A stretch of DNA of 64,000 nucleotides from a virus (Duplodnaviria; Caudoviricetes), in IMG/VR virus record IMGVR_UViG_3300032327_001202, positions 1 through 64,000 of that record, one strand, 5' to 3'. The notes beneath the pieces were generated by a model that did no database searches, was not told the DNA's origin, and saw only the letters and a program-made list of their open reading frames with translations. Positions 6,692-36,955 of the stretch are shown here, piece after piece. Within the stretch, counting starts at the first letter, position 1. Each line of letters starts with the position of its first letter. A program made the translations under genes and the position numbers.

Positions 6692-7429
6692 ATGCAAGTA
6701 TTAAAATTTAAGCAGTATAAAAACTCTATTGATCTAGCAACAGATTTTTTAGATTTGCTTGGATCTAAAATTAATGAAGATAACGTTGTGAATGATATCT
6801 TAAATAAAGTAACAAATGATTTAAAATTAAATTTTACTCTTATCACTTCTTTTGGTACAGGTATAAGTTTTATATATCCTATTGTTGATAATTTAATCAA
6901 AAATTCAAAACTAAATATAGATATGTCTATTGAAAATATAGTTTTATTAACTATAACTTCTATAAGTATATTCTATCTTGAATCAAGAAAAGGAAAAGTG
7001 AATGAAAAACTCGAAAAAGAAGTTAAAAATTTACTTGAAGAATTAAAACTTAGAGGTATAGGAAATGGTATTGTTAAAAAATTAACAGAATGTCTAAAAG
7101 CTCTAAATAACATCTTCATAATCCTACTTAAGAACACATATAAAACCATCGAATCTTTTGTTGATATGTTTAGTTATACTTCAATTTTAGTGCCTATTTT
7201 GAGTGCTATAACAACACTAGTATCTAAAAATAATTATAACTTAGATACTTTTAGTAATAGTTTTATTTCTTTAGGTATAGGTATTACTACATTAACTGCT
7301 AAACACGGTTTAAATTGGTTAATACAGAAGTTAAAAAATAAAATCTATTTAAATAACGATATTAATAAAAATATCGCTACTCAAATAGATGATACTCCTA
7401 ATTCTAATTCTATGATAAACGAATCATAG
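6692..7429 (+). CDS. Hypothetical membrane protein
   Basis: 245 aa with several hydrophobic segments; TTTAATATATA motif upstream. Confidence 0.55.
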   Translation: MQVLKFKQYKNSIDLATDFLDLLGSKINEDNVVNDILNKVTNDLKLNFTLITSFGTGISFIYPIVDNLIKNSKLNIDMSIENIVLLTITSISIFYLESRKGKVNEKLEKEVKNLLEELKLRGIGNGIVKKLTECLKALNNIFIILLKNTYKTIESFVDMFSYTSILVPILSAITTLVSKNNYNLDTFSNSFISLGIGITTLTAKHGLNWLIQKLKNKIYLNNDINKNIATQIDDTPNSNSMINES

Positions 7430-8689
7430 TTTAACATTTACTCTTTTAATAGATTCTTGAAACCAAATAGGTAAATATTCTGAACTATATTTGATAATAT
7501 CTCCAAAAGATCCATCTATAATTATAGTATCAGCAAAGTCCGTTTTTGAACGAATACTTCTACCACACATTTGTTGTAAAATAGCACAGGTTTTCCATGC
7601 ATACCATTCAGGATTATTCTTCTGTCTTAGTTTATTTTTTTGTGAAGCTAAACTAGGATAAGGTACTTTTGCTATAATCTGAAATCTGCTTTTATCACCA
7701 TCAAAAGATACCCCTGTTGATATACTTGGTGATATTAAAACAGTTGGATCATCTGAATCAAAATGCTTTTTTAACATTTCTGTTTTATTAGCAGAATCAT
7801 GAAACAATAATCTTTTGTTTTTTATATCATTTTTAATCCAAGTTGATAATTCAAAAGAATTAGTATGTATAATTCCTTTACTATCTTTATACTTATTAAG
7901 TATTTTGTCTAAATAACTTTTGTAATTGATAAAAGTTTCTTCTTTTTTAGCATATGACATCTTACCTAATGGCATATAAAATATTTGTCTATTTTCAATA
8001 GGAAATGGAGAAGGTATAGAATAATATACACATTTTTTTAAATCCAATCCATTCAATTCTGAAAAGATTTTCTTACTTAAAATAGTACCTGACATTAATA
8101 TAACAGTATCATAATTATCCCATACATATTTATTCAAATACTTATATGACCATATTGGTTCTAATGATAATTCATATTGTTTTGTTTTATCATTATAACT
8201 TTTTTCCAAAACCCAATTCTCTCTATCATCATTATACTCCTTTAAGAAAACATCTATTTTAGTTTCATATTGTTTTAAATCTGCCATAACTTGTATAGAT
8301 TTAACATCATCATTAACATAATCTAAAATTTTAGATAACTTTAAATCTCTTTTAGTATTTTTAGCAGTTGATGGTGTACTAATCATATTATTAGTAGTTT
8401 GTGCTATTGTTAGTATAAGCTCTCCTTTAAAATATTCTAAGAATTGAATATAATCATCAATAGTAGCAACATATTTTAACTTACTTATTATTTCATCTTC
8501 ATTATCAAATCTTAATTTTTTAATTACGGTTTCTGTAATTTTTATTGAAATAAAATCTGACATAACTTCATCTAATAAATGGCAATTACTAACATTTAAA
8601 TTATTAGCAAAATAATTATGATTATCTTTAACTCTTAGATTATAAACATCTTCTTTATAATCTATTTTTTTTATTTTTTTTATTTTCAT
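7424..8689 (-). CDS. DinG/YoaA/XPD-like SF2 helicase, C-terminal part, preceded by a 35-aa C-intein
   Basis: MKIKKIKKIDYKEDVYNLRVKDNHNYFANNLNVSN|CHLLDE, then ILMSGTI, GIIHTNSF, STGVSF, IIAKVPYP, QQMCGRSIRSKTD and IIIDGSF motifs. Confidence 0.9.
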   Translation of the reverse strand: MKIKKIKKIDYKEDVYNLRVKDNHNYFANNLNVSNCHLLDEVMSDFISIKITETVIKKLRFDNEDEIISKLKYVATIDDYIQFLEYFKGELILTIAQTTNNMISTPSTAKNTKRDLKLSKILDYVNDDVKSIQVMADLKQYETKIDVFLKEYNDDRENWVLEKSYNDKTKQYELSLEPIWSYKYLNKYVWDNYDTVILMSGTILSKKIFSELNGLDLKKCVYYSIPSPFPIENRQIFYMPLGKMSYAKKEETFINYKSYLDKILNKYKDSKGIIHTNSFELSTWIKNDIKNKRLLFHDSANKTEMLKKHFDSDDPTVLISPSISTGVSFDGDKSRFQIIAKVPYPSLASQKNKLRQKNNPEWYAWKTCAILQQMCGRSIRSKTDFADTIIIDGSFGDIIKYSSEYLPIWFQESIKRVNVKL

Positions 8690-9830
8690 TTTTAAATTGT
8701 TTTAAATTTCTTATTAATTTTTCAGTACAAGATTGTTTTAATACTAATTTTTCATCATAATTATTTTTAAACCATTCATCAGTTATAATTACATAATTAT
8801 AACTATTTTCTTTTGCCCATTTTTCCGCATAAATAATTTTTACTTTTACTTTATCATCATCTAAATTAGATTTAGGTTTTATTTCATAAAAAGTTTTTTG
8901 AGAATGATCAACAAAATCAATTATATAGTTTTTATATTCATTATTATAAACATATGGAATAACTAATTTTTCATATAATAAATCAGGATTAAATAATTGA
9001 AAATATGCTTCCCAACACGATCTTAACTTTAAATTTATAATTTTGTTATTTCTTATAAAAGATATATCACATCTTGATTTTGCCCAACTATTACTTATTG
9101 GTGGTACAAACAACCCATCTTTTATTTTTTTCTTCATAGAAATAGATTGTTTTTTATAAGATTTTTTACGAGTTTCTTCAGTCATTTTATGACTAGTATT
9201 ATTATCACCTTTTTGTATATTAGAAAAATACAAACTAGCACATTTTTTACTACAAAACGGATATATATCTTTTGTATTTCTTCTTGGTAATAAACCAATT
9301 GATTTTTTATTATTATTACATTCTTTTATTCCACATTTTTTATCCCAATGTGATGTTAAATAGTTTTTAACATTCTCTAAAGTAATTTTGGGTAATTCTA
9401 AAATATAATCGTTCTCAATTAAAATTTTATCTAATTTTAGATTTAATCTTTCTTCACCTTTCATATTTAATATCTGTCTTTTTATTAGAAAAGATGATAA
9501 AAAATCATATATTTTATCTTTTTCTTCGTTTGTCATATATTATATATTAATAATATCATCATCTTCTGATAAATCTTCTACTTTTTTCCATTCTCCAGTT
9601 TTTAATCTAACTTTGTGATTCCCTGTTATTTTTAACATAACACCATTTTCCATTTCTAACTCATACATCTGTTGATTTTTACTAAGATTTTTATATACAT
9701 ATTCTACTTCTTTATTTTCATATTCATTAGTTTCTTCATTTAAAGTAAGTACATATTCACCTTCTTTTATATCTTTAATCTTTTTATCTTCCCCTGTACT
9801 CATTTTAATATAACTATCAGGATGTAAACA
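8585..9830 (-). mobile_element. Canonically split intein in the helicase DExH motif with nested endonuclease gene
   Basis: IntN 9543-9830 (Cys1 TGT at 9828-9830); IntC 8585-8689 ends Ser-Asn; +1 residue is Cys. Splicing would restore DE-C-H. Confidence 0.88.
8655..9536 (-). CDS. Free-standing endonuclease (TnsA-N/gp4-like PD-(D/E)xK) nested between the split helicase halves
   Basis: LRSCWEAYF...YIIDF...FYEIKPK...WAKEN..YVIITD, plus an N-terminal Cys motif (CGIKEC...FCSKKC). Confidence 0.75.
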   Translation of the reverse strand: MTNEEKDKIYDFLSSFLIKRQILNMKGEERLNLKLDKILIENDYILELPKITLENVKNYLTSHWDKKCGIKECNNNKKSIGLLPRRNTKDIYPFCSKKCASLYFSNIQKGDNNTSHKMTEETRKKSYKKQSISMKKKIKDGLFVPPISNSWAKSRCDISFIRNNKIINLKLRSCWEAYFQLFNPDLLYEKLVIPYVYNNEYKNYIIDFVDHSQKTFYEIKPKSNLDDDKVKVKIIYAEKWAKENSYNYVIITDEWFKNNYDEKLVLKQSCTEKLIRNLKQFKNENKKNKKNRL

Positions 9831-10331
9831 TTCATCCACAATTAATAATCTAGAATCTCTATTCTCTAATAACTTAGGAGTATATAAAGAATGTATTAAA
9901 TACAAATGAAAATTAGTTAATGAAACTCTACCACCAATATATGCTTCTTTAGCAGAATCATACGGACAAAAATCACAAACAGTTTTATTTAACTTATTAA
10001 ACTCTTTACCTTGAGCACAAGAACAACTATAACTTGAACAATTATAATTATCTTTCCCTTTTAAGTTGGTAATTGATTCGTATTCTTCGTCATATTGATC
10101 TTGAAGAATTTTACCAGGTGTAATTATATCTACTTTTGAATCAGGACTTACTATATTTAAAAACCATTGACTTATCATAAGTGCTAAATGACTTTTACCT
10201 GTCCCTACAGGTAAGTTCATTAGATAAAATTTATTATCAGGTTTATTAGCATGAATTTTCTTAACAAATTCTAATGCTTCATCTTGTTCTTTTCTTGGTG
10301 TGTATCTATTTAAATCTTCTCTTAATCCCAT
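9540..10331 (-). CDS. DinG/YoaA/XPD-like helicase, N-terminal part, ending in a 96-aa N-intein
   Basis: Q motif (PRKEQ), Walker A (PVGTGKS), Cys cluster, Walker B LLIVDE|CLHPDSYI..., intein block B ITGNHKV; ORF ends DDDIINI. Confidence 0.9.
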   Translation of the reverse strand: MGLREDLNRYTPRKEQDEALEFVKKIHANKPDNKFYLMNLPVGTGKSHLALMISQWFLNIVSPDSKVDIITPGKILQDQYDEEYESITNLKGKDNYNCSSYSCSCAQGKEFNKLNKTVCDFCPYDSAKEAYIGGRVSLTNFHLYLIHSLYTPKLLENRDSRLLIVDECLHPDSYIKMSTGEDKKIKDIKEGEYVLTLNEETNEYENKEVEYVYKNLSKNQQMYELEMENGVMLKITGNHKVRLKTGEWKKVEDLSEDDDIINI

Positions 10332-10346
10332 TATTTATTTTTATTT

Positions 10347-11342
10347 TTAATCTTCTAACTTTATTTTATCCCATAAAAACAAACAATCATCTTTTTTTAT
10401 TGATATAATTTCTTTATCTTCAATAAAAAAACAACTTTTTTTATTTCTCTTATGAAGAATTAAATCTTTTCCATATATATTTATACTATCTCCTATTTTA
10501 TAAAAAAATGAGTTTCTTAATACTTTATCTTTTTCTTCCTTAAACTTAAATATAAATTTAGAAGGTATTTTAACTAAATTTCTACATCTTCTTCCAATTG
10601 AAGATTCAGTCATATTTAATTCAACTGAGGCTTCTTTAATAGAAGAAAACTCTTTAATAAAATTTCCTTCTAAATCATATTGAATAATAGATTTTTTTTG
10701 AAATTTAGACATTTTTAATTTTAATTTATTATTATCAATAACTTTATTTCTATTAATTTTTATTTTTTCAATTGTTTCATCAGAATGCTTTTTACCAAAC
10801 ATAGGATGATTAATACCTATAACTCTATCAGATTGTTCTTGTTTAACTTTTTCTGTATGATGTTTTCCAAAAAAAGGATTTTTTTCCCCTAAGTTTATTT
10901 TACTAAAATGCTGTTTTTGCTCTTCAGATATTGGATTATTTTCATAAAATTTTTTTCTTGATAAAATTGCTTTTAATTTAGAATCTCTAGTTATTTGAAA
11001 ATCATAACCACCATTCCCACCTTCACATAGATTAGTTAAAGGTCCTGTATTTATGTTAATTCGACCAATTTTTGATATAACTTTTTTTTCTAATTCATAA
11101 GCTTTACTTTCCTCTTCTATATCATTATATATAATGATAGTTTTTATTTCTATATTATTTTCGTTTAATTTTTTTATTTTATTTGATTTAAAATCAAATG
11201 ATTTCGTTTTTTTAGACTGAGTGTACCTTCTACCACTGCCTTTTCCTACATAAAAAGGTTCGAATTCGAATTCTAAATCATCATAGATAAATTGTCCTGA
11301 TTTAGAAGAATCTAAATAAACATAAATGTAATATTTTTTCAT
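10347..11342 (-). CDS. GIY-YIG-type homing endonuclease with NUMOD3 and NUMOD1 repeats
   Basis: YIYVYLD...PFYVGKG..RY N-terminus; GEKNPFFGKHH and NHPMFGKKHS repeats; IIQYDLEGNFIKEFSSIKEAS. Confidence 0.8.
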   Translation of the reverse strand: MKKYYIYVYLDSSKSGQFIYDDLEFEFEPFYVGKGSGRRYTQSKKTKSFDFKSNKIKKLNENNIEIKTIIIYNDIEEESKAYELEKKVISKIGRININTGPLTNLCEGGNGGYDFQITRDSKLKAILSRKKFYENNPISEEQKQHFSKINLGEKNPFFGKHHTEKVKQEQSDRVIGINHPMFGKKHSDETIEKIKINRNKVIDNNKLKLKMSKFQKKSIIQYDLEGNFIKEFSSIKEASVELNMTESSIGRRCRNLVKIPSKFIFKFKEEKDKVLRNSFFYKIGDSINIYGKDLILHKRNKKSCFFIEDKEIISIKKDDCLFLWDKIKLED

Positions 11343-11393
11343 TTAATCTTTTTTATTTTATATATTAATTAATTTTAAATCCCTATACCAAAT

Positions 11394-12932
11394 CTAATCT
11401 TCTAATTCTTGTTCTAATTGTTTAATTTCATCCAAAATTTGCTTTAATTCCTCTTTTTTCTTCATCATTATGTTTTTATTCTTTTTCCTATCACTAAATA
11501 CATCTATTAACATATTTATAGTAGGTGAAACTACTTTTTTAAAAACACAACCATTATTGCAAATAACTACATTATCAAAATCAATTTCTGTACCATTAGT
11601 ACAGAAATTTTTATTATTTGGGTTTTGAATTCCTACAAAATTTTCAGGTGAAATGTAGAATTGCATCTGGGTTCTGGGATAGAGGCTTGAAAAGTCATAA
11701 CAAACACACCACTTGTTCATTCCAACAATTGGGTCTTTAACAAATCCACCTTCTATTGTTCCTTCGTCACTACCTTCTTTTTCATCATCTTTAAATATGA
11801 TAGCGTTCATTTGATCTTTAAACCTATGTCTTAAAACTCCTTCTGTAATTGCTAATGTACCTAAATTATTTTTTGCTTTAGATAATACATCAGTAATTTT
11901 TATTCTTGATAAAGAACTTATCGCATAAATAATAGAGATATAGTTTTTGGCATCATGTATTTTTTGAACTAACACGGAATCCACCGCATTATAATACATA
12001 AAAGTTTCAAAATCATCTTCATATAATTTTTGTAAAGAACCATTATATTTAATTTTCTCTAATCCAATTAATTTATTAGATACAAATTCTAATTTAGAGG
12101 ATTCTTTAATCTTAATTGTAGTATCACAGATTTCATATAACTGCATATAATCAAAAATCATCTTATGTGCAGGCATTTCATAATCTTTCAACCAAATTTT
12201 ATTCATTTTTTTGGTTGGAGATGCTACCGCAGGATCAATAGTTATTTCTTTACCATTAATTTTCTTTTTTAATTTTCTTGACCTATTAACTAAATAAATC
12301 CAGTCATAGTTAACAAAGTTCCATCCTGTCATAACAGACATTTTTGGAACCATCGTATTAAAAAAGTTATACATCATATCAAATTCTGAATCGTATTTAA
12401 CATACTTAAACTTATATGTTGTTCCTAATTTTTTAAAGTATTTATTAGTATTATCTAATATACGTGTTTGTGTTTCACTTGATAAATCTTTTAATCCTAA
12501 AAGGATTATTTTATCTTCATAAACAATAGATATTGAAAGAACTTTTGTAGCTGCGCCTTCTTTAACTACATTTCCTGCTTCATCTTTAATATCAGCGGCT
12601 TCAGGAAATCCATCTACTATTTCAGTTTCAATATCTATAAAATAGATATTGGGTAAATTAAATTCAAAGATTTCTTCTCTTTCATTTTCGGGAAGAGTGT
12701 CTAAAAATTCATAAATAGAATATCTATTTGGGTATGGTGAATCTACTAATTTAATAGATTTACCATCCCATGATTTATATTTTTGATCTTTTTCAGAATC
12801 TTCATCATCACAAACTACGTATTTTTTGGGATTTGGCCATTTATAGTATTTTAGTTTAATATTTCCTGACTTATCGACATAGGAAACTACTAAATTTTTT
12901 GTACTTGGTAGGTATTGAGTATCAACTAGCAT
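11394..12932 (-). CDS. Family-B DNA polymerase, N-terminal part (3'-5' exonuclease through motif A)
   Basis: FIDIET (ExoI), GWNFVNYDW (ExoII), YNAVDS (ExoIII), GGFV..P, YDFSSLYP. Ends in a coiled coil before motifs B and C. Confidence 0.9.
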   Translation of the reverse strand: MLVDTQYLPSTKNLVVSYVDKSGNIKLKYYKWPNPKKYVVCDDEDSEKDQKYKSWDGKSIKLVDSPYPNRYSIYEFLDTLPENEREEIFEFNLPNIYFIDIETEIVDGFPEAADIKDEAGNVVKEGAATKVLSISIVYEDKIILLGLKDLSSETQTRILDNTNKYFKKLGTTYKFKYVKYDSEFDMMYNFFNTMVPKMSVMTGWNFVNYDWIYLVNRSRKLKKKINGKEITIDPAVASPTKKMNKIWLKDYEMPAHKMIFDYMQLYEICDTTIKIKESSKLEFVSNKLIGLEKIKYNGSLQKLYEDDFETFMYYNAVDSVLVQKIHDAKNYISIIYAISSLSRIKITDVLSKAKNNLGTLAITEGVLRHRFKDQMNAIIFKDDEKEGSDEGTIEGGFVKDPIVGMNKWCVCYDFSSLYPRTQMQFYISPENFVGIQNPNNKNFCTNGTEIDFDNVVICNNGCVFKKVVSPTINMLIDVFSDRKKNKNIMMKKKEELKQILDEIKQLEQELED

Positions 12933-21069: not shown

Positions 21070-22338
21070 ATGATAATCGAAAAAAATTTAGTGGAAATAA
21101 TCCAAAATATTGATAGTCCTTTAAGTAAAACTTTTCTAAAATTAGAAAAGTTAAATCTTACTTCTATAGTACAACTATCAAATAAAGATTGGCATTTCCA
21201 AGTAGTAAACGGTAAGAAAAAAGAAACCGTAAAAATGTTTAAATTTATCAATACTTATTTCCCAAATAAGTTTGAAAAAGATGAAGTTATTAGTTTTTGT
21301 GAAAAAATTATAACTAATTCTAAACCTAAACAAGTTACTACTAAAATAGAACCAAGACCATTTAAATATGAGCCTCTTAATGTAAGAGATACATTTATTT
21401 CATTAGTTACTGAAACTTATCCTCATGGATTTGAAGATGAAGTTTTAGCTTATCTTCCACAAGATCTAGAAATAGATGATTTTGGTAATTACTATAAAGT
21501 AATTGGTGATTCTGAAACAGTTTTTACGAGTCATTTAGATACTGCTTTAAGAGAAAAATCTGATATTAATTTATATTCATTCTTTGTTAAAGAACAAGAG
21601 TTTATTAAAACAGATGAAACAACTATATTAGGAGCTGATGATAAAGCCGGTGTTACTATCATGTTATATATGATGGCTAATAATGTTCCTGGTTTATACT
21701 ATTTCTTCTTAGGTGAAGAAAGAGGGGGTATTGGATCTAAAAAGGTTGCTAATGATTTTATAGACAATCCACTTTTAAAAGGTAAAAAAAGAATGGTATC
21801 TTTTGATAGAAAGAATTATTATTCTATCATAACATCACAATTAGGAGAAGCTTGTTGCTCAAATGAGTTTGCAGATGGATTATGTAATGAATTAAATAAA
21901 AATGGTTTGCATATGAAACCTGATGATACAGGTATCTTTACAGACTCTGCTAATTTTGTGGATTATATTCCTGAATGTACTAATATTTCTATTGGATATT
22001 TCAACGAGCACACTCATAAAGAGATTCAAAATATTTCTTATTTAGAAATATTGGCTAAGTGTTTAGTTGATGTAGATTGGGAAAACTTACCAACTGTTAG
22101 AAAGGCAGGTATTAGTGAACAATCTATAATTAAACATGGTGACAAAATTAAGAAGTTAAGAAAGTTAGGTATTAAAAATACGCTTCATATTAAGGAGTTA
22201 AAGGGTAATTTATATACTATCTTAGAGGTAGATAATAAAAATCCTATGGGAATATATGAAGATTTATCTCTTTTAAGAGAAACTTTAGGAAGTATAGATT
22301 TAAGATTTTACAATTCAAATATTTTAATAAAATTATAA
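21070..22338 (+). CDS. M28-like zinc peptidase, paralog of 15530-16639, with N-terminal extension
   Basis: ETYPHGFE, FTSHLD, LGADDKAG, FFLGEERG, SFDRK, TDSA, ISIGYFNEH. Confidence 0.8.
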   Translation: MIIEKNLVEIIQNIDSPLSKTFLKLEKLNLTSIVQLSNKDWHFQVVNGKKKETVKMFKFINTYFPNKFEKDEVISFCEKIITNSKPKQVTTKIEPRPFKYEPLNVRDTFISLVTETYPHGFEDEVLAYLPQDLEIDDFGNYYKVIGDSETVFTSHLDTALREKSDINLYSFFVKEQEFIKTDETTILGADDKAGVTIMLYMMANNVPGLYYFFLGEERGGIGSKKVANDFIDNPLLKGKKRMVSFDRKNYYSIITSQLGEACCSNEFADGLCNELNKNGLHMKPDDTGIFTDSANFVDYIPECTNISIGYFNEHTHKEIQNISYLEILAKCLVDVDWENLPTVRKAGISEQSIIKHGDKIKKLRKLGIKNTLHIKELKGNLYTILEVDNKNPMGIYEDLSLLRETLGSIDLRFYNSNILIKL

Positions 22339-22597: not shown

Positions 22598-22813
22598 ATG
22601 AGTACAATTAATGTAAAAATACAAACAAATAGAATTATTGGCGGTCTTAGAGATTGTATTAAATTATTTTTACAAGAAACTAAAGAAAAAGTATTAACTT
22701 TAGAAGTTTTAAAAAAATATAATTTTGAAGAAAAAGATTTATATGATATGAATCTAACTAAATCAAAAATAAGAGATTTTAAAATTAATAAAATATTAAA
22801 ATTATGCCAGTAG
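22598..22813 (+). CDS. Mini-protein of the RDxxIxxIL family; N-terminal segment unidentified
   Basis: MSTINVKIQTNRIIGGLRDCIK...LKKYNFEEKDLYDMNLTKSKIRDFKINKILK. Confidence 0.65.
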   Translation: MSTINVKIQTNRIIGGLRDCIKLFLQETKEKVLTLEVLKKYNFEEKDLYDMNLTKSKIRDFKINKILKLCQ

Positions 22814-23043
22814 TTTCATTAGATTTCGCAAGTTTATATCCTAGACCAATGGGTGATTTTTCTATGGGAGATGATTTTGATAAATCTACTAAGTATATAT
22901 TAGATAGAAATAAAGATCATGATTATGTAGATCTTTTATTACTTGAAAAGTATGGGTTGGTAACAAGTAGTTTATTTGATTTTCCTTTTGTTCAAACAAA
23001 GGTAAGAGATTATGAGATAAATAAAATATTAGATAGTATATGA
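22804..23043 (+). CDS. Mini-protein of the RDxxIxxIL family carrying a PolB motif-A-like segment
   Basis: Starts MPVVSLDFASLYPR; ends EKYGLVTSSLFDFPFVQTKVRDYEINKILDSI. Confidence 0.7.
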   Translation: MPVVSLDFASLYPRPMGDFSMGDDFDKSTKYILDRNKDHDYVDLLLLEKYGLVTSSLFDFPFVQTKVRDYEINKILDSI

Positions 23044-23294
23044 GTGATATAATCAGACAAGAACTTAAAAAAGTAATAAATAGTTTTTATGGAAGAAATC
23101 CCGATATAGAAACTGATTTTACTAAATCTATAAAGTTTTTATTATCTAAATTGGATGTTAAGTTTTTAACATACGAGTTTGTAGAAAAGATAAAAGATAA
23201 ATATGATATAGTATATACGGATTTGTCTGATTTTTCATTAGTTCAGATAAAGGTAAGGGATTATGAAATAAATAAAATCTTTAAAAGTATCTAA
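23040..23294 (+). CDS. Mini-protein of the RDxxIxxIL family carrying a PolB motif-B-like segment
   Basis: RQELKKVINSFYG near the N-terminus; ends DKYDIVYTDLSDFSLVQIKVRDYEINKIFKSI. Confidence 0.7.
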   Translation: MSDIIRQELKKVINSFYGRNPDIETDFTKSIKFLLSKLDVKFLTYEFVEKIKDKYDIVYTDLSDFSLVQIKVRDYEINKIFKSI

Positions 23295-23324
23295 ACAAAA
23301 AAAATTATTTTTTTATCACTTTAT

Positions 23325-23618
23325 ATGAAAAGTAAAAGTGATTTAAAGATAAAATATGGTGATAACATCATAGACGAAATAGAAAATAAATTAGCAAAAG
23401 AAATATCTGATAGTATAAACAAGGATATACTTAATAGTTTTAAGAAACCAAGTAAAATTTATCTACTTTCTTTAGTTGAAAATATTAATAATAAAGAAGG
23501 TGAGTTATTTATACTAATGGAAAAATATGGTATTATAGAAAATGATTTATATAGCCTTGAAATTGTTAAATCAAAAATAAGAGAATATAATATAGATTTA
23601 ATCTTAAAAAATAATTAA
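23325..23618 (+). CDS. Mini-protein of the RDxxIxxIL family carrying a major-capsid-like helix
   Basis: DLKIKYGDNIIDEIENKLAKEISDSINKDIL versus capsid DIKANTGMDIVQKMESILVNELSQTISKQII; ends KIREYNIDLILK. Confidence 0.7.
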   Translation: MKSKSDLKIKYGDNIIDEIENKLAKEISDSINKDILNSFKKPSKIYLLSLVENINNKEGELFILMEKYGIIENDLYSLEIVKSKIREYNIDLILKNN

Positions 23619-23646
23619 CTTTTTCAAAAATTTTTTGTATATTTGT

Positions 23647-23934
23647 ATGGAAGAAAAAAATATAAATTATAAATCTTATATAGAGGAACAAATAAGTAAA
23701 AGTATTTCTTATTCTGATTATATATGTGATGAGTTAGATAAAACTATAGATTATGCTGATTACTTAAGTGATAAACTTGAAAGTGAAGTATTTTTAGTAA
23801 AATTACACACTGATATGAATTTATCAGATATAATAGAAATGTATGATTTATCAGAAAAAGATCTTCATAAATTGAGTATAGTTAAGTTAAAAGTAAGAGA
23901 TTATAAAATAAATTTATTACTAAAACAAGATTAA
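23647..23934 (+). CDS. Mini-protein of the RDxxIxxIL family carrying two scaffold-repeat-like units
   Basis: SYIEEQISKSISYSDYICDELDKTIDYADYLSDKL versus scaffold EYIAENLDKNISYSEYIAENLDRNISYAEYLAENL; ends KVRDYKINLLLK. Confidence 0.7.
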   Translation: MEEKNINYKSYIEEQISKSISYSDYICDELDKTIDYADYLSDKLESEVFLVKLHTDMNLSDIIEMYDLSEKDLHKLSIVKLKVRDYKINLLLKQD

Positions 23935-23963: not shown

Positions 23964-24322
23964 GGGGATGAAATGATTTAGATTCATGGAATTAATGGTA
24001 GAGATGCAAACATCGGATAATCCTAACCCGATTAATAAATTGGATTAAAGTCTAAACGACAAAACAAATACAGTAGCAAGCCGTGAAGAATTAGTAGCCG
24101 CTCTACAAAACAACATCTTAAAGGTAAACGAAGTAGCTTTTGCTTAATTGACAAAAACAAAAAGGTTTCCAAATAGTTAAAAATCTATTCAAAAATTTTC
24201 GGATTTGTTAGGGGTTCGTTAAAAACTAAATTAGTTTGTTATTTTATAAAAAAGTAACTACGTTTGTAAATGAGTTTCTATGATTAACCAGAGAAGACCC
24301 GAATTCGCCTTCGGCATCTCCA
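23964..24322 (+). ncRNA. ssrA: tmRNA (transfer-messenger RNA)
   Basis: 5' GGGGATG pairs with 3' CATCTCC-A (G3.U70 alanine identity). T-arm CCGAA-TTCGCC-TTCGG. Tag frame 24058-24147 follows a TAAAC-G resume context and ends ...NEVAFA*. About 360 nt; CCA not encoded. Confidence 0.88.
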
Positions 24323-24327
24323 CTAAT

Positions 24328-25116: not shown

Positions 25117-25293
25117 ATGAACAAAGATAAAATAGATTTATATAATTTTTTAGTAGATAACCCTTACTTTTCTAAGGAATATGTTATGGGAAAGATATTT
25201 AATTTTTCTTTTTCTGATATACAATATATCAATAATTTAGAACTAATGGAAAAAAGAAATAAAAAAATAGATGATTTATTAAATGAAGATTAG
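25117..25293 (+). CDS. 58-aa mini-protein carrying a portal C-terminal-like segment plus RNKKIDDLL
   Basis: Not in the ORF track. Manual translation: MNKDKIDLYNFLVDNPYFSKEYVMGKIFNFSFSDIQYINNLELMEKRNKKIDDLLNED*. Confidence 0.65.
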   Translation: MNKDKIDLYNFLVDNPYFSKEYVMGKIFNFSFSDIQYINNLELMEKRNKKIDDLLNED

Positions 25294-25444
25294 TATTGAT
25301 GAAATAATAACTTATGATATAGTAGCATCTCCAGCACTTGGAAGTGCTAAACTAGTATATGATGAAGAGCTTAAACGAAAGAAAATATTAGAGGATATGG
25401 AGAGGAGAAATAAGATTTTAGATGAGTTATTAAAAGAGGATTAA
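25283..25444 (+). CDS. 53-aa mini-protein carrying a prohead-protease motif plus RNKILDELL
   Basis: Not in the ORF track. Manual translation: MKISIDEIITYDIVASPALGSAKLVYDEELKRKKILEDMERRNKILDELLKED*. Confidence 0.7.
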   Translation: MKISIDEIITYDIVASPALGSAKLVYDEELKRKKILEDMERRNKILDELLKED

Positions 25445-25465
25445 ATTAATTTAATCCTCTTTTTT
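25432..25465. terminator. Bidirectional terminator closing the ssrA-iscA-mini-ORF run
   Basis: AAAAGAGGATTAAA-TTAA-TTTAATCCTCTTTTTT. Confidence 0.75.
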
Positions 25466-27790: not shown

Positions 27791-28288
27791 TTATTTAGTC
27801 CTCTTTTTTTTACCTCTTTTATTTATTGGAGGTGTATAATTTGTTGATGTGGATTGGGTAGATGGCGTAGTGTAAGCATAATCAAAATAAAATAAATTAG
27901 GGCTGGAACCTGTTTTATATAATTCATGTTCTTCTTCTTTAAATTCCTCAAATTCTTTGTTTTCTAAAATAGAATCTAATTTTCTATCACGATTAATGGT
28001 AGCAACTTCTCGTTTAATTCTTTCTTTTTCCTCCTCTGAATTACCAAAACCTTTCATAGGGTTAACAGTAACTAAATCTATCCCTATTGTTTGAGCGGCT
28101 ATTTTTTTAGCAATTGGTAATAAACTTGGAAAAGATTCATTTGACTGTGTCCCTACTAATGTAGTATCCATATTTATTTCATTTTTTAAATGAAGATTAG
28201 CATATTCGGTCATCCAGTTATTTACTACAGATTGTGTAGATGATACATGATTCAAATCCCATTTATCTATTTTTATATTTGGTTTCAT
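27791..28288 (-). CDS. Short paralog of the major capsid N-terminal region with an RDRKLDSIL motif
   Basis: NWMTEYANLHLKNE and SLLPIAKKIAAQTIGIDLVTVNP versus capsid SWMAEYAEYHAINE and NLLPVAMKIAAQTIGLDLVAVKP. Confidence 0.75.
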   Translation of the reverse strand: MKPNIKIDKWDLNHVSSTQSVVNNWMTEYANLHLKNEINMDTTLVGTQSNESFPSLLPIAKKIAAQTIGIDLVTVNPMKGFGNSEEEKERIKREVATINRDRKLDSILENKEFEEFKEEEHELYKTGSSPNLFYFDYAYTTPSTQSTSTNYTPPINKRGKKKRTK

Positions 28289-29494: not shown

Positions 29495-31237
29495 TTAGTT
29501 AAGGTAGCCATTAGCATCATTAACGTAGATAGTCATAAATTGTTTTTGTGGGAAGAAACCTAATTCAGCCACAGCATATCTTGATCTTAAAATCATTCTT
29601 GGAGCAAATGTTGCTTCTGACATGATTGAGATAGATTGTGCCATGAGGAATGGCACGAAACAGATACCTGGTTGATCAGGATTGTTTTTACGTCCGATTA
29701 AGATTCTGTTGTCATTGTATTTCATGTAAGGATCTACGTAGATAGTGATATCACCGATTTGACCTACAGGGTACATTTGACCGTTTGTGTTTAATTTAGA
29801 TTTAAGTGGGTTAATTGTGTAACCTGCAACATCCATTAAAGCTGCTGCTAATCCACCATTTGTTACCGCATATTGTGCTGGTCCAACACGTCCTTCAGTT
29901 GCGATGTAGTTAGAAGCATGTACCATTTTAGTGATAAGCTTTCTTTGTACAGCGTGTGTAGTTTCACCACCTGGTCCTGCTTGAACATAAAGAGTATCTA
30001 AGTCAAATATAGTTTGTCCAGAGATGTTAGCGTTAGCATTTAAACCTGTGTATAAAGGAGCAGTTTGTCTGTTTATATTACCCATATCAAATACTTTAGC
30101 AATAATTTGCTTAGAGATAGTTTGAGAAAGTTCGTTTACAAGGATTGATTCCATTTTTTGAACGATATCCATACCAGTGTTAGCTTTGATATCTTCAATT
30201 TCTGTTCTACGTAATGCAGAACTTACTTCTACTGTACCAACTGTAATTGATTTAGAAGAAATTTTTGGTCCAATTGCACCTGCATATGTGCTTTCTTCTT
30301 CTTGACGAGCCATTGGGTATTGCCCACCATTACCATTAAAGTTTGTAACATATCCTGGTAATTGATCTTCAAGAGCAGATACTAAGCTTATGCTTATAGC
30401 ATTTGAGTTAGTAGACTGTCCAAATAAGTAGTTAATTTCTGAAACCATTGAACCACCTGCTGTAGCACCTGTAGTTGAAACGTTAAATGAGTTGTTTGCT
30501 TGATTTAAGCCATAAACAACACCACCACCATATGCACCACCTGCCGCATTTGATTCTTTGTAAGCTCTGAATATAGGCTGTCCATCAATACGAGAGAAAC
30601 CTAAGAACTCTAAGTAACCAAATTTGTTAGTTGGTTCAGTTGTAGTACTAGATACTGAAGTTGATGCAGTGAAACCTGTCCAAATTCTTGTACCAAATGC
30701 TAAACCACCTTGGTTTTGTTGAATACCTGCAGTAGTTAAAGCGCTATTAATAGCTGTATTTAATGAAGCACTTAAACCTGTAGAAGTTAAAGTAGCATTC
30801 CAAGCAATTTTGAATACTTGAGGTTTTGTGTTAAAGTTTGAAAGATTTAAATCGTCATATTGAAAATCAACATAAACTAAATCAATCTTTGGACCTGGAG
30901 TTGGCTTTACAGCTACTAAATCAAGACCAATTGTTTGTGCAGCAATTTTCATAGCTACTGGTAATAGGTTTTGTCCTAAATCACCTGAACCTATGTTTGA
31001 TGAACCATAGTTTGCACCAATTGTTGTACCTGGGTAAGTACCAACTTGTGGAGCTAAAACAGCACCTAAACCACCTGTAGAAGCATTAAGGTAAGCGTTT
31101 TCGTTTATTGCATGGTATTCAGCATATTCTGCCATCCATGAATATTTTTCTCTGTCCTCTTTGTTAACACCAATGTTTTCTAAAATTGGAGTCCATTTGT
31201 TAAGAGCTTTTTGTAAGTCAATTCTAACTTGTGACAT
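29495..31237 (-). CDS. Major capsid protein, T4 gp23-like
   Basis: KWTPIL, AAQTIGLDLVAVKP, ELSQTISKQII, YVDPY, PFL, PRMILRSRYA; strong codon bias; 580 aa with an internal insertion. Confidence 0.9.
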   Translation of the reverse strand: MSQVRIDLQKALNKWTPILENIGVNKEDREKYSWMAEYAEYHAINENAYLNASTGGLGAVLAPQVGTYPGTTIGANYGSSNIGSGDLGQNLLPVAMKIAAQTIGLDLVAVKPTPGPKIDLVYVDFQYDDLNLSNFNTKPQVFKIAWNATLTSTGLSASLNTAINSALTTAGIQQNQGGLAFGTRIWTGFTASTSVSSTTTEPTNKFGYLEFLGFSRIDGQPIFRAYKESNAAGGAYGGGVVYGLNQANNSFNVSTTGATAGGSMVSEINYLFGQSTNSNAISISLVSALEDQLPGYVTNFNGNGGQYPMARQEEESTYAGAIGPKISSKSITVGTVEVSSALRRTEIEDIKANTGMDIVQKMESILVNELSQTISKQIIAKVFDMGNINRQTAPLYTGLNANANISGQTIFDLDTLYVQAGPGGETTHAVQRKLITKMVHASNYIATEGRVGPAQYAVTNGGLAAALMDVAGYTINPLKSKLNTNGQMYPVGQIGDITIYVDPYMKYNDNRILIGRKNNPDQPGICFVPFLMAQSISIMSEATFAPRMILRSRYAVAELGFFPQKQFMTIYVNDANGYLN

Positions 31238-31317: not shown

Positions 31318-33522
31318 TTAAATGTTTTTGAATCTTTCTAAGATTGATTTGAAATCTGAATCAGATAGTTTATCTTCTTGTATTAAACTGTCATGAGAAA
31401 TCATTTTTTTAGTTGATTCATTCTTTTTTAAGTTTCTAGTTAACCAAAAATGTTCAATTTTAGCTTCTGAATCCAATTCAGGATATAGTTTAGCTTGTGA
31501 AAGAATTGATTTTTTAGAACTTTCATTTGTTACTTCCCAAATTGATTTTATATTTTCTGGCATCAATCTGATTAGTCTTTCTTCTAATGATTCATTTTTA
31601 ATAGAAAGTGCTTCTTGTATTAATTTTATAACTTCTGAACTTGTGAAATAACTCTTTTCGTTTATGTAAAGTTTTACTTGTTCTTGCTCTTCGTTTGTTA
31701 AGCTATAATAGCTATCAACTTGAGACTTGTTTAAAAATTTTAAGAAATGTAGATCGTTTGTTTCAGAAACTTTACGTTTTCTAGCTTCTTCGATTAATAA
31801 ATCTATTTTTTTACTTAAATCTGAATCTGTATTTTTATTTTCTAAGTAGTCTTCGTCTGCTTTAGATACATCTGGTAAACCTTCTAATTTTACTTCTTTA
31901 CCTAATAATTCATCTTTGAAATCTGCTTCATTTGGAACCGCAGTATCAACTTTTTGTTCTTCTGGTAATTCAACTTCTGTTAATTCAGTATAATCTAAAG
32001 AAACTGGAGTTGCTTCATCAGCTTCACCCGCTTTTTCAACACCATCTTCACCATGAAGTTCATCCTCACCACCTTCTAAATAGTTATCTGATTTATTATC
32101 AACATCATTTTCACCAAAACCATATTCTTCTAAAGTAGGAATAAGATTTGATTCATTACTTTCAAATAATTTAGTACCATTAACTTTTTCAGAAATTAAA
32201 CCTGTATAAGATACAGCTTTATCTAAGTTTTCAGCAATGTATTGAGAATAAGAAATGTTATCATCAAGGTGTTCTGCTATATATTCAGAATATTTAATAT
32301 TACCTTCTAAGTTTTCAGCGATATACTCAGAATAAGCAATATTACCATCTAAGTTTTCAGCTAAATATTCAGCATAAGAAATATTTCTATCTAAGTTTTC
32401 AGCTAAGTATTCTGCATAAGAAATATTCTTATCAACATTCTCAGCAATATATTCAGAATAAGAAATGTTTTTGTCTAAATTTTCAGCGATGTATTCAGAG
32501 TAAGAAATGTTTCTATCTAAATTTTCAGCGATGTATTCAGAATAAGAAATGTTCTTATCTAAGTTTTCAGCAATATATTCTGCATAAGCGATATTTTTAT
32601 CTAAGTTTTCAGCAACATATTCAGAATATTTAATTGATTTGTTTAAGTTTTCAACTAAATAATCGTTATGTTCGATTAATCTATCAGTTGTATCTTTAAG
32701 AGATTTGTTCTCAGAAACAACAACTTGAATTTTTTCTGCTAAATAATCTAAGTATTTAACAACTTGAGAATTAGTTTTATTTAATTCTTCATAGTAGTTT
32801 AAAAGTTTTTCTAATTTAACTGGTTCTAAATTACCAGATTTAAGAGCACTTTTAACTTCTTTTTTAGTTGCAGCAATTTCATTAACTATATATTTCGAAT
32901 AGTCTGACAATTGATCTTTCGTTACGAATTCATTTTTGTTCATGTTAAATAATTCATTTATTTTTGATTCATTTGATACTTCATATATTCTGAAGTTAGC
33001 ATCATTTGAATAATTTAAAGACTCATTTATAGAAGACATTCTCGCAGAAGCAAATCCCGGATCTGCAACTATATCATAAGTAAATAATTTTTTTAGTGAT
33101 ACTGTACCATCAGCTTCTGTAATACCAGCAGCTCTTGAAGATACAAATATAGGGCAACCATCATCAACTAAAGCCTTAGCTTCTTTTCCCCAATAGGTAT
33201 TTAATAATTTAATTTGTCCTTCAACTACATTTTTTTCTTTAACATAATATGCGGTTTTGATTAAATGGGATGCACGGGATAGTGAAGTGTCAAAGACGTC
33301 GGGGTGGTCAAACTCACCATAAACTACTCCCATAGTAGAAATCCTGCTATTAAGTTCTTCTAAACAAGGCAAGAATCTTTCAGGAGTATATACTCTTTCA
33401 TTCCTATTTTTAACCATAAACTCAGTAAAAGTACCTCCTAAAAGATAATCTTTTCTAGCATCTACACCTTCGTTCATTTTTAAAGGATTTGTATTATTTT
33501 CAATGATTAATACTGGCTTCAT
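31318..33522 (-). CDS. Prohead protease (T4 gp21-like) fused to a scaffold/core-like coiled-coil region
   Basis: KNRNERVY, YGEFDHP, FVSSRAAG, TYDIVADPGFASA, followed by 14-aa repeats and an acidic region. Confidence 0.88.
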   Translation of the reverse strand: MKPVLIIENNTNPLKMNEGVDARKDYLLGGTFTEFMVKNRNERVYTPERFLPCLEELNSRISTMGVVYGEFDHPDVFDTSLSRASHLIKTAYYVKEKNVVEGQIKLLNTYWGKEAKALVDDGCPIFVSSRAAGITEADGTVSLKKLFTYDIVADPGFASARMSSINESLNYSNDANFRIYEVSNESKINELFNMNKNEFVTKDQLSDYSKYIVNEIAATKKEVKSALKSGNLEPVKLEKLLNYYEELNKTNSQVVKYLDYLAEKIQVVVSENKSLKDTTDRLIEHNDYLVENLNKSIKYSEYVAENLDKNIAYAEYIAENLDKNISYSEYIAENLDRNISYSEYIAENLDKNISYSEYIAENVDKNISYAEYLAENLDRNISYAEYLAENLDGNIAYSEYIAENLEGNIKYSEYIAEHLDDNISYSQYIAENLDKAVSYTGLISEKVNGTKLFESNESNLIPTLEEYGFGENDVDNKSDNYLEGGEDELHGEDGVEKAGEADEATPVSLDYTELTEVELPEEQKVDTAVPNEADFKDELLGKEVKLEGLPDVSKADEDYLENKNTDSDLSKKIDLLIEEARKRKVSETNDLHFLKFLNKSQVDSYYSLTNEEQEQVKLYINEKSYFTSSEVIKLIQEALSIKNESLEERLIRLMPENIKSIWEVTNESSKKSILSQAKLYPELDSEAKIEHFWLTRNLKKNESTKKMISHDSLIQEDKLSDSDFKSILERFKNI
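32194..32655 (-). repeat. About 11 tandem in-frame 42-nt repeats (14-aa unit AENLDKNISYSEYI)
   Basis: Read directly from the protein and the DNA; degenerate at synonymous positions. Confidence 0.9.
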
Positions 33523-33658: not shown

Positions 33659-34063
33659 ATGTATAAAATTAATTTTGGTGATGAGAAAGTTTTTTTAAAT
33701 TATTTAAAAGGTTTTGAAAATAAGTACCATAAAAGACAAAAAGTATTAAATGAGATTTTAGAAATTAATGATAAAGATGATGAAGCATTAAGCTACTGGG
33801 ATTTTACTGATAATAGTATAATATATGGTCAATTTTTTGATAAAAGATATGATAAAGATACATCTTTAAGTAATGTTTCACATTATGTTAAAAACATAGA
33901 AAAAATAAATGGGGAATATTTCGCAGAAATAAAAATATTAACTACTTATTGGGGTATAGCATTATTAGATTTAATTAATGCTGGAATAAAATTTCATTTA
34001 GAATGTGTCTATCATACTTATGAAAATAAAAAAATAATTAGACTAGATATAAATGATTATTAG
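33659..34063 (+). CDS. Truncated, probably inactive prohead-protease paralog
   Basis: IYGQFFDKRYDKDTSLSNVSH...EIKILTTYWG versus VYGEFDHPDVFDTSLSRASH...QIKLLNTYWG. Lacks the HP His and the SSR Ser; contains RQKVLNEIL. Confidence 0.65.
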   Translation: MYKINFGDEKVFLNYLKGFENKYHKRQKVLNEILEINDKDDEALSYWDFTDNSIIYGQFFDKRYDKDTSLSNVSHYVKNIEKINGEYFAEIKILTTYWGIALLDLINAGIKFHLECVYHTYENKKIIRLDINDY

Positions 34064-35221: not shown

Positions 35222-36955
35222 TTAAAATTCAAACTCACCACCGCCAGCTTCACCACCAGCTTCAGGTGCAGGAGGATTTTCACCACCAGCTTCAGGTTCC
35301 GAAGCAGCTTCACCACCTTCAGGAGGAGTTTCACCACCCGCTTCAGGAACAGGAGCTTCAGGAGAAGGTCCTGCTTCTCCACCACCGCCTCCACCTTCTG
35401 GCATTCCACCTCCAGCAGCAGTTGATGATCCAACCCCTTTTGATTTAATCCAATAAGCCTTATTTTCTTCAATTTCTTCGGGAGTTAATTTCATAATTTT
35501 ATCAACAAGGAAATCAACATGGAAATAAGGTTGTTCACCATTCATAATTCCTAATAAAGTAGTCATTATGGTAGCTCTAGATTCCATATTTGCTAATTTT
35601 TTCCATTCTTCAAAAATCTGATTTGTATTGAAAATAACATCAACTTGGTTAAGAAATACTTCATCATGTCTTAATTCAGGAAATTCCATACACATTTGAA
35701 GTTTAATTGGTTTAACAATTAGTTCTTTAATAATTGAACGTAAACGGCTAATAAAATTACCAAAGGTTATTTCATCTCTTGTCATTTCATTTGCAGCAGT
35801 CACTAACTGACCCCCACCATTTTCTTTTTCAAATCTTTGGAAAGGTATCTTACTTGCTCTTTTCAAACAATTCATAAACCAATTTAACATATTATCTTCA
35901 TTAAGATTATGTCCTTGTGGAGAAATCAATTCCATATTTGGTGTACCTTGATCACCTTCTGGAAACCATATTTGTTTATTATATGGTAAGTGTTTACTAC
36001 CACTAATAGTTAATGTACCTAATGAATCATCAAATTCTACATCTTCAGAATAATCAGCTATTAATTGTGCAATTTGTTCCTCAGCTCTTTGTTTTGGTAA
36101 ACCTTTAATAGGTATTGTAAACTTTTGATAAACCATCGCATTAACTACGTTAAACATAATTCTTGTTTGTTCCATAATCTTTAATTGATTATATGGTTTA
36201 ATAAGTCCTTCTACATAAGAAGTTTCGGAATAATCATGTTGAGTAGAATATGATATAAATACTATTTGCGAATCTAAGAAAATTCTTCTTAAAGCAGGAT
36301 CTTCTGGATATTGTATCCAAATATTTCCTATACTTGGTTCATAAGCTGGAACAAGAGTTTCAGGTCTCATTCTATTAAAACTAATAATATTCTTTTTTGT
36401 ATCATCCCATATAATTTCAACTGCGGCATAACCATCAATTAAAAAATCTTTAGTCATATTCCAAGCAGTAATACCATCAGAAAAACCAAAACGACTGTAT
36501 ATTTTTTCAAAAAATTCTTGATATTTATCTCGTATATCTTGTGAATAACTATTATTTAAAGGACTTGGAGAACAGAAATCTTTATCTTCATCATACACAA
36601 TAATTTCATCGGCTAACACAGATACAAATTCACGTATTTCATCCTTAATAGAATATTCTCTTAATATTCTTCTTTTATCTGAATACGCTTTATCTAAATA
36701 AGGAATTGATTTTTTGTTTAAAACTTGAGCGACTGCTCTTTGAGAAAAGAAAGCATACATAGAATCCGCTCTTTGAGCAAGAGGGTCTTCATTCATACCG
36801 ACACCGATAGAATTTCTAAGTATCATATCTTCATATTTTAGACCTAACCCTGAAAGGGATCTAAGAAGACGATTAAATATACCTTTATTTTCAACAGCAG
36901 AAGGTATAATATTTGGGTTTGTATTGCTATTTATTGGATTATATGATCCTGGCAT
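35222..36955 (-). CDS. Portal protein, T4 gp20-like
   Basis: FLIDG, LKIMEQTRIMFNVVNA, QIWFPEGDQG, LKRASKIPFQR, TRDEITFGNFISRLR; G/E/P/A-rich tail. Confidence 0.88.
   Translation of the reverse strand: MPGSYNPINSNTNPNIIPSAVENKGIFNRLLRSLSGLGLKYEDMILRNSIGVGMNEDPLAQRADSMYAFFSQRAVAQVLNKKSIPYLDKAYSDKRRILREYSIKDEIREFVSVLADEIIVYDEDKDFCSPSPLNNSYSQDIRDKYQEFFEKIYSRFGFSDGITAWNMTKDFLIDGYAAVEIIWDDTKKNIISFNRMRPETLVPAYEPSIGNIWIQYPEDPALRRIFLDSQIVFISYSTQHDYSETSYVEGLIKPYNQLKIMEQTRIMFNVVNAMVYQKFTIPIKGLPKQRAEEQIAQLIADYSEDVEFDDSLGTLTISGSKHLPYNKQIWFPEGDQGTPNMELISPQGHNLNEDNMLNWFMNCLKRASKIPFQRFEKENGGGQLVTAANEMTRDEITFGNFISRLRSIIKELIVKPIKLQMCMEFPELRHDEVFLNQVDVIFNTNQIFEEWKKLANMESRATIMTTLLGIMNGEQPYFHVDFLVDKIMKLTPEEIEENKAYWIKSKGVGSSTAAGGGMPEGGGGGGEAGPSPEAPVPEAGGETPPEGGEAASEPEAGGENPPAPEAGGEAGGGEFEF

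Follow-up and report, generated by a model that had tools for sequence, protein, structure and literature searches.

Small tandem genes of a huge phage join segments homologous to capsid and scaffold proteins to a shared C-terminal module

Introduction

In plants and animals, microProteins such as LITTLE ZIPPER and the Id proteins are pieces of larger proteins and probably work by occupying the interaction site of the larger protein. In phage T4 the capsid-targeting sequence consists of some 10 residues at the N terminus and is cleaved by the prohead protease, and the Gol peptide of T4 gp23, known from the Gol/EF-Tu/Lit exclusion, is a short conserved piece of the capsid protein that is read on its own by another protein. 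Sid of P4 and CpmB of SaPIs are small helical proteins, encoded by satellites, which redirect the capsid and do not copy the scaffold repeat of the helper. The sensors of conserved phage proteins that are known recognize folded domains for the most part, rather than short helices.

Here we analyse two adjacent small genes in a stretch of 64,000 nucleotides of phage DNA (hereafter the window; positions 1 to 64,000 of IMG/VR record IMGVR_UViG_3300032327_001202). The window lies in a record of 82.8 kb, a fragment with a completeness of about 15%. The original prediction for this DNA was that the two mini-ORFs mimic a capsid helix and the 14-aa repeat of the scaffold, and that they could co-assemble with, poison or stand in for prohead components.

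Results

Genome setting

The window has 24% GC, and its minus strand carries a T4-type head module consisting of a gp23-type major capsid protein (MCP) gene at 29495-31237 (-), a protease-scaffold gene at 31318-33522 (-) in which an S77-like prohead protease is fused to a scaffold of 14-aa tandem units, and a gp20-type portal gene at 35222-36955 (-). Sheath, large terminase and replication genes are also encoded in the window. By MCP, the nearest public genomes are LR756502, LR745206, LR756504 and LR756501 (50-62% identity), all "uncultured phage" records of 630-735 kb, and Lak phages are more distant than these. Genomes larger than 634 kb and Lak phages together make up the Mahaphage clade, whose members are predicted to infect Bacteroidetes (PMC7162821). 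The phage is a huge, uncultured T4-like member of the Mahaphage clade.

The two small genes lie outside the head genes, about 4 kb from the head gene block, in a plus-strand block that also contains a peptidase, a tmRNA and an Fe-S protein. The first gene of this block, at 21070-22338 (+), encodes 422 aa with a weak likeness to PepT-type metallopeptidases (NCBIfam E = 3e-9, far under the cut-off), and a strong hairpin terminator at 25432-25463 closes the block. Directly 3' of the small genes is a divergent phage tmRNA at 23964-24325 (+), which matches Rfam RF00023 over its full length with 22.2 bits (gathering score 47; E = 3.4e-7 in a 396-nt search) and which ARAGORN did not detect. The 430-nt intergenic stretch that includes the tmRNA has a mean column identity of 98% over three relative loci, compared with 33-82% for the flanking mini-genes. 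Other huge phages have been reported to encode tmRNAs (PMC7162821).

A scan for sigma-70 promoters found sites no more numerous than in shuffled sequence. By eye, an alternating T/A run is visible about 20-35 nt before the start codons of head and sheath genes, upstream of 31237, 33522, 36955 and 45207 (-) and of 33659 (+), and this common run may be a late promoter. A different motif, ending in T-A-n-n-T-T-T-G, was seen by eye upstream of both 21070 and 23647.

Two further genes of the window are interrupted. DNA polymerase B (PolB) is split at 10347-12932 (-), where an N-half of 512 aa with the exonuclease domain and motif A is followed by a GIY-YIG/NUMOD endonuclease gene (NUMOD1/NUMOD3). 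We did not find the C-half in the 82.8-kb record; in LR756502 and LR745206 the two halves are more than 100 kb apart. A helicase at 7424-10331 (-) is interrupted by an intein whose parts are spread over three ORFs: one with ResIII and the N-part of Hint, one for a free-standing TnsA-like endonuclease, and one with the C-part of the intein and the C-terminal domain of the helicase.

Five tandem genes share a C-terminal module

The two mini-ORFs are the last two of five tandem genes, which we call cassettes, at 22598-23934. The final ~45 residues of all five cassettes are one module, with profile E-values of 1e-21 to 1e-24 for each of them in the record, and their N-termini differ. Cassette 1, at 22598-22813 (+), has the module and an N-terminus for which we found no parent in the 83-kb record. 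The second cassette, at 22804-23043 (+), joins the module (E = 1.8e-24) to a piece of PolB motif A, which matches motif A of the resident PolB N-half (BLASTP E = 0.001). The third, at 23040-23294 (+), has the module and a K-x3-N-S-x-Y-G piece, which we take to be PolB motif B; we considered whether this cassette starts where the C-half of the split PolB starts, and the starts differ. In the fourth (MCP-like) cassette, at 23325-23618 (+), the module occupies 23481-23615 (+; profile E = 1e-22, also seen in alignments), and in the fifth (scaffold-like) cassette, at 23647-23934 (+), it occupies 23797-23931 (+; profile E = 4.8e-23).

Conserved features of the module are a Y, K-x-K-x-R and I-x-x-I-L, and both mini-ORFs match its profile. 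Among 1.84 billion representative sequences the profile finds 80 clusters at 50% identity. Nearly all of these are proteins of 55-120 aa that have the module at their extreme C terminus. Their N-termini include pieces of the scaffold repeat and of the MCP helix, both of which were scored, together with PolB motif A and B pieces, a sheath-like piece and several unidentified peptides, which were read by eye only. The module has no family match in Pfam, PHROGs, NCBIfam or PDB sequences, and Pfam RFC1_C matches on orthologs are weak (E about 0.001, under the cut-off). A query with the module against 50,697 phage records gave matches in two genomes only, both uncultured, and in no cultured relative. 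Within the clade the full module is rare–of five complete genomes, three have one or two strong copies and two have none. The tail motif, in turn, occurs 11 times in the 83-kb record, compared with 0.16 expected, and 8 of the 11 occurrences are 2-4 residues from a C terminus.

Structure prediction confidently models the module as a compact helical domain. Because it has no known family or fold match, any role that we give to it is a guess. Both mini-ORFs are real genes of a widespread and undescribed family of 55-120-aa proteins, whose architecture we describe as "bait plus handle", the handle being the module. Full-text searches of the literature did not find a published description of such proteins.

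The MCP-like cassette contains a fragment of the capsid protein

The MCP-like cassette encodes 97 aa, in which an N-terminal segment derived from the MCP is connected to the C-terminal module by a variable linker. By BLASTP and profiles, the segment at 23337-23489 (+) is homologous to MCP residues ~348-402, which span a long conserved helix and the next turn. The parent segment, residues 348-402 of the 29495-31237 product, is encoded at 30032-30196 (-), and few stretches of the MCP are as well conserved in the clade. The original prediction had aligned a string from the mini-ORF (23340-23432, +) without gaps to a string from the capsid protein (30101-30193, -, inside the MCP gene). Both strings are in the window exactly as quoted and the resemblance is borne out, with 11 of 31 residues identical and a BLASTP E-value of 2e-4 for the pair. 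Profile alignment with significance estimates, which had been proposed as a check, agrees: hhalign of the ortholog alignment against the clade MCP alignment gives P = 2e-4 and pairs ORF 23325 residues 5-44 with MCP 348-387. The same segment is matched independently by Pfam Gp23 (E = 0.003) and PHROG 138, the major head protein (E = 0.0026).

An obvious concern is that amphipathic, low-complexity helices in an AT-rich proteome might resemble each other by chance, and it had been suggested that the prediction would fail if the alignments scored no better than random amphipathic helices. None of 2000 plain shuffles reached the score of the mini-ORF/MCP pair, and among shuffles that preserved hydrophobic and polar classes 23 of 3000 did (p ~0.008). 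Taken as a maximum over the whole proteome, the score of 58 is less exceptional, being reached by 6 of 150 shuffles, and a query with the mini-ORF gives 55 for another ORF of the record, close to the 58 of the MCP. These two results are what favours chance. With the MCP helix as the query the mini-ORF is the clear top match in the record, at 58 versus 42.

Other members of the family carry the same signal, some of them more strongly. P0034, a distant member located in the syntenic locus of a 633-kb contig, is above Pfam's curated cut-off for Gp23 (28.1 bits, E = 1.8e-6, profile positions 165-220). The orthologs from the relatives L044 and L042 outscore the window copy against the MCP in an identical register, and three family members at a greater distance, P0034 among them, match overlapping portions of this MCP region. 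Against MCP 348-400, orthologs and family members have z-scores of 3.3-8.5; the weakest is reached by 10 of 1000 shuffles and the others by none. These independent profile, ortholog and family-member results raise the moderate statistics of the single MCP pair to a firm result. Together with the class-preserving shuffles, and with a scaffold match in the neighboring cassette that is far beyond any null (see below), they argue against chance resemblance, which is disfavoured by the tests and which we regard as extremely improbable.

The copied region is small. The whole-protein Gp23 (PF07068) score of ORF 23325 is 17.4 bits, below the gathering cut-off of 24.4; it covers only profile positions 161-196 (36 of 376), and the complete HK97 fold is absent. 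Its N-terminal segment is only ~35% identical to the MCP helix, and at the DNA level the similarity between this segment and the MCP gene is no better than that of codon shuffles. As judged from these alignments, ORF 23325 is a fragment homologue of the MCP and not a capsid protein. An AF2 model made with 10 close orthologs is poor (pLDDT 60, pTM 0.31) and has residues 4-38 as one helix, with low confidence. An ESM Atlas model of the same ORF (pTM 0.64) has no structural neighbor with a TM of 0.5 or more.

The scaffold-like cassette contains three scaffold repeat units

The scaffold-like cassette encodes 95 aa from the ATG at 23647, which is preferred as the start codon over the less likely TTG at 23635, since orthologs begin at the ATG. 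Its N-terminal part has three 14-aa units of the scaffold repeat type at 23656-23790 (+), identified by BLASTP and DNA similarity, and the parent tandem repeat region of the protease-scaffold gene is at 32212-32676 (-). The mini-ORF string in the original prediction is in the window exactly as quoted, at 23695-23778 (+). The scaffold string set against it has no verbatim counterpart, although near-identical 14-aa units fill 32224-32577 (-). The predicted resemblance to the scaffold repeat is real (BLASTP E = 4e-12 over 45 residues), and it extends over three units rather than the two that were described.

Against successive registers of the scaffold repeat, BLASTP E-values range from 4e-12 to 5e-9. 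The Smith-Waterman score of 130 compares with a proteome-wide null of 49±5, and the scaffold units of ORF 23647 have z = 16.9 against the scaffold repeat. Similarity to the scaffold gene extends to the DNA level, with a score of 41 compared with 18±2.5 for codon-shuffle nulls. Whereas the full protease-scaffold protein has a protease domain at the N terminus, at least 10 units and a long acidic C-terminal part, ORF 23647 has only its three units and then the module.

An AF2 model of ORF 23647 from an alignment of 46 sequences has a pLDDT of 87.7, with a helix at residues 8-53 followed by the compact helical module at pLDDT 94-97. Because the scaffold-like N-terminus is modelled as a single 46-residue helix, zipping of this helix onto the coiled coil of the scaffold remains physically plausible. 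Searches with this model gave no significant match in Foldseek, and in VIA only generic long helices (Z <=5.3). The alignments of both cassettes show N-terminal segments homologous to their parents, and because the resemblances are real homology, the label "mimic" in the original prediction is fair as a description of the sequences.

Other ORFs with pieces of head proteins or the tail motif

Two overlapping micro-ORFs within 25117-25444 end in a shorter form of the tail motif. One of them, at 25283-25444 (+), copies a strand of the prohead protease (BLASTP E = 4e-6 to protease residues 141-162), has the tail motif 3 residues from its C terminus, and has a counterpart in LR745206. For the other, we rejected a candidate identity as portal-like, because it has no BLASTP similarity to the portal and the sole support was a PHROG 213 match with E = 0.01.

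Elsewhere in the window are two ORFs that are paralogous to parts of head proteins and contain the tail motif internally. The 165-aa product of 27791-28288 (-) corresponds to the N-terminal region of the MCP (BLASTP E = 2e-10) and has counterparts in LR745206 and LR756502. The 134-aa product of 33659-34063 (+) corresponds to part of the domain of the prohead protease (E = 1e-6, residues 66-125). Beyond the window, at 78620-78982 (-) of the record, a 120-aa ORF has the tail motif 2 residues from its C terminus; no parent of its N-terminus was found in the 83-kb record.

The five complete genomes of the clade have many ORFs of 80-260 aa built from MCP pieces, several of which end in the same tail motif. 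One 196-aa ORF joins the N-arm region of the MCP, the same helix that is copied in ORF 23325, and the C-terminal strand. In the 735-kb genome LR756501, several MCP-piece ORFs have a different recurring motif, the acidic D-P-Y-G-E-E-x-W (for example 145657-146043, 497461-497556 and 552664-552915), and a 459-aa ORF seems, by eye, to join polymerase-like, sheath-like and MCP pieces.

The cassettes turn over and evolve faster than their parents

Syntenic copies of the cassette locus are present in several metagenomes, and the cassettes keep open frames in every relative examined. Syntenic orthologs of the MCP-like cassette are 64-99% identical to it, and their conservation is highest in the N-terminal segment and in the module. 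The ratio pN/pS in this gene is 0.11-0.26 for the bait, 0.75-1.7 for the linker and 0.32-0.52 for the module. The bait and the module are thus under purifying selection, with the bait the most constrained part and the linker near neutral. The scaffold bait has pN/pS ~0.95 and shows indels between relatives, compared with 0.12 for the scaffold gene; it evolves nearly neutrally, which also fits weak constraint. In the relative L044 the scaffold repeats are nearly identical, with one unit fewer.

Compared with three relatives, the MCP-like cassette has an identity of 0.37-0.82 and the scaffold-like cassette one of 0.33-0.45; most of their neighbors have 0.77-0.98, which makes the two mini-ORFs the fastest-changing genes of the locus. 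Over the same relatives no change is seen in the MCP helix and hardly any in the scaffold repeat units. Since the parents stay constant, there is no co-variation of baits with parents, and the baits do not track them.

The arrays are also remodelled. Their cassettes number 5, 5 (one replaced) and 3 in the relatives. In one relative the position of the motif-B cassette is taken by a cassette with another N-terminus; a second relative has only three cassettes, none of them scaffold-like. A relative whose MCP is 87% identical lacks the scaffold-like cassette at its syntenic locus. For the replaced cassette of L042, a search of the 83-kb record gave no parent.

Discussion

We suggest, with a probability of about 0.4, that the cassettes are competitive mimics made of a bait and a handle, tuned to a fast-evolving outside partner rather than to routine head assembly. 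By bait we mean a short piece at the N terminus that copies part of a core protein of the phage itself, here ~55 residues of the capsid protein (gp23-type) or three coiled-coil repeat units of the scaffold, and by handle the constant helical module of ~45 aa. Exposed as a long helix, the bait could occupy a site that normally reads the parent segment and so compete with it, and the handle might add an activity that all members have in common, for instance oligomerization or docking to a shared partner. The partner would most likely be a host immune sensor or the machinery of a competing phage. A fast-evolving partner is favoured because change in the baits is several times faster than in parents that stay the same, because close relatives differ in their arrays, and because pieces of the polymerase are carried on the same handle. 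Polymerase baits, failure to track the parents and loss of the scaffold-like cassette are what would be expected of genes facing such a partner, and for this reason we favor, with low confidence, a role in conflict, in which the proteins would be decoys directed at a sensor of the host or at a rival phage. If the bait is a decoy of a capsid helix that does not change, it should have remained similar to that helix, and its low identity counts against mimicry. The preference of sensors for folded domains similarly counts against the decoy reading, and the near-neutral evolution of the scaffold bait and the failure to identify a parent for cassette 1 or to confirm the portal likeness also weigh against the model.

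Among the alternatives, a role within the prohead is the closest to the original prediction. The scaffold-like protein would zip onto the scaffold coiled coil and the MCP-like protein would dock where the MCP helix is read; both could be carried into the core, or could cap or time assembly, with the module as a core-targeting or release element. The three true repeat units and long modelled helix of the scaffold bait, the purifying selection on the MCP bait, the nearness of the head genes, and the origin of most identifiable baits, in the window and in the clade genomes, from head proteins (MCP, scaffold and protease) all suit this idea, and for the scaffold bait we consider it plausible on the strength of the model. 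However, the cassettes sit with a peptidase, a tmRNA and an Fe-S protein rather than among the head genes, their baits diverge fast and without co-variation from parents that stay the same, and a relative with a closely similar MCP does without the scaffold-like cassette. In particular, the polymerase-motif cassettes, the fastest evolution at the locus, and the gain, loss and replacement of cassettes argue against a role limited to the prohead, and as an account of the family we think it rather unlikely.

Alternatively, the cassettes could be by-products of recombination with little or no function, produced when a 3' cassette encoding the module spreads by duplication and illegitimate recombination and captures scraps of resident genes at its 5' end. 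A genome rich in homing endonucleases and inteins, with PolB split beside a GIY-YIG/NUMOD endonuclease and a helicase split by an intein, would provide the means, and the scaffold bait, with its DNA-level similarity to its parent and its near-neutral evolution, looks as such a scrap should, as does the turnover of cassettes between relatives. Against this, the MCP-like cassette keeps its Gp23 match down to 37% identity and the ~80 clusters keep the module strictly C-terminal. Because frames are intact in all cassettes of every relative, the MCP bait and module are under purifying selection and the family is broad, the neutral-debris model is weakened, and we consider it unlikely. A further idea, which we judge distinctly less probable, is that the cassettes encode small nucleic-acid-binding regulators, in which the module is a minimal domain like a helix-turn-helix (HTH) and the bait lets the unassembled parent or its partner titrate the regulator, coupling expression to assembly or replication. 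By eye the module does have a hydrophobic-G-I-T turn flanked by helices and then a basic K-x-K-x-R helix, and several weak Foldseek matches are to HTH proteins (~44-50 columns, E 2-7, not significant), but none of the searches of Pfam, NCBIfam, PDB, Foldseek and VIA linked the module with significance to an HTH family, by sequence or by fold, and the long helix dominated the VIA matches.

Returning to competitive mimicry, a bolder and doubtful extension is that huge phages keep a modular, fast-turning library of decoys, in which short copies of conserved core segments that are read by immune sensors or rivals are joined to a shared handle by which the reader is blocked or diverted. In this library the two mini-ORFs would be the entries for the capsid helix and the scaffold repeat, and other lineages would use other handles. 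If baits do act as mimics, they would provide large phages with a general and evolvable way to interfere with readers of conserved proteins, and they would offer a route, by sequence only, to the segments of capsid, scaffold, polymerase, protease and sheath proteins that are "read" inside an infected cell. Leaving function aside, the family accounts for a group of small genes of huge phages that lack annotation, and it shows that gene fragments of essential proteins can be retained under selection.

Comparison with known systems

Like P4 Sid and SaPI CpmB, the mini-ORFs encode small helical proteins, in their case with putative ties to capsid and scaffold assembly. They differ in origin, since Sid and CpmB come from satellites and we saw no satellite features here, and in that the scaffold-like bait copies the phage's own repeat. 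The internal and prohead core proteins of T4 are similar in having a constant short element on variable small proteins, in a T4-like phage and with a link to head biology. In the cassettes, however, the constant element is C-terminal, folded and ~45 aa long, in contrast to the targeting peptide of T4 cargo, and the variable N-termini are copies of core proteins.

The pair gp24/gp23, and the "mini-MCP" ORFs of the clade, are likewise duplicates of a major capsid gene kept in the same genome, but gp24 keeps the whole HK97 fold whereas ORF 23325 keeps ~55 residues fused to an unrelated module. The Gol peptide is in the N-terminal region of gp23, not in the helix that is copied here, and it is part of the capsid gene rather than a separate gene; the paralogue of the MCP N-terminal region at 27791-28288 is a closer case than ORF 23325. 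MicroProteins are similarly small and related in sequence to part of a larger protein. The phage family differs from them in drawing on many parents–capsid, scaffold, polymerase and protease–by way of a common C-terminal module.
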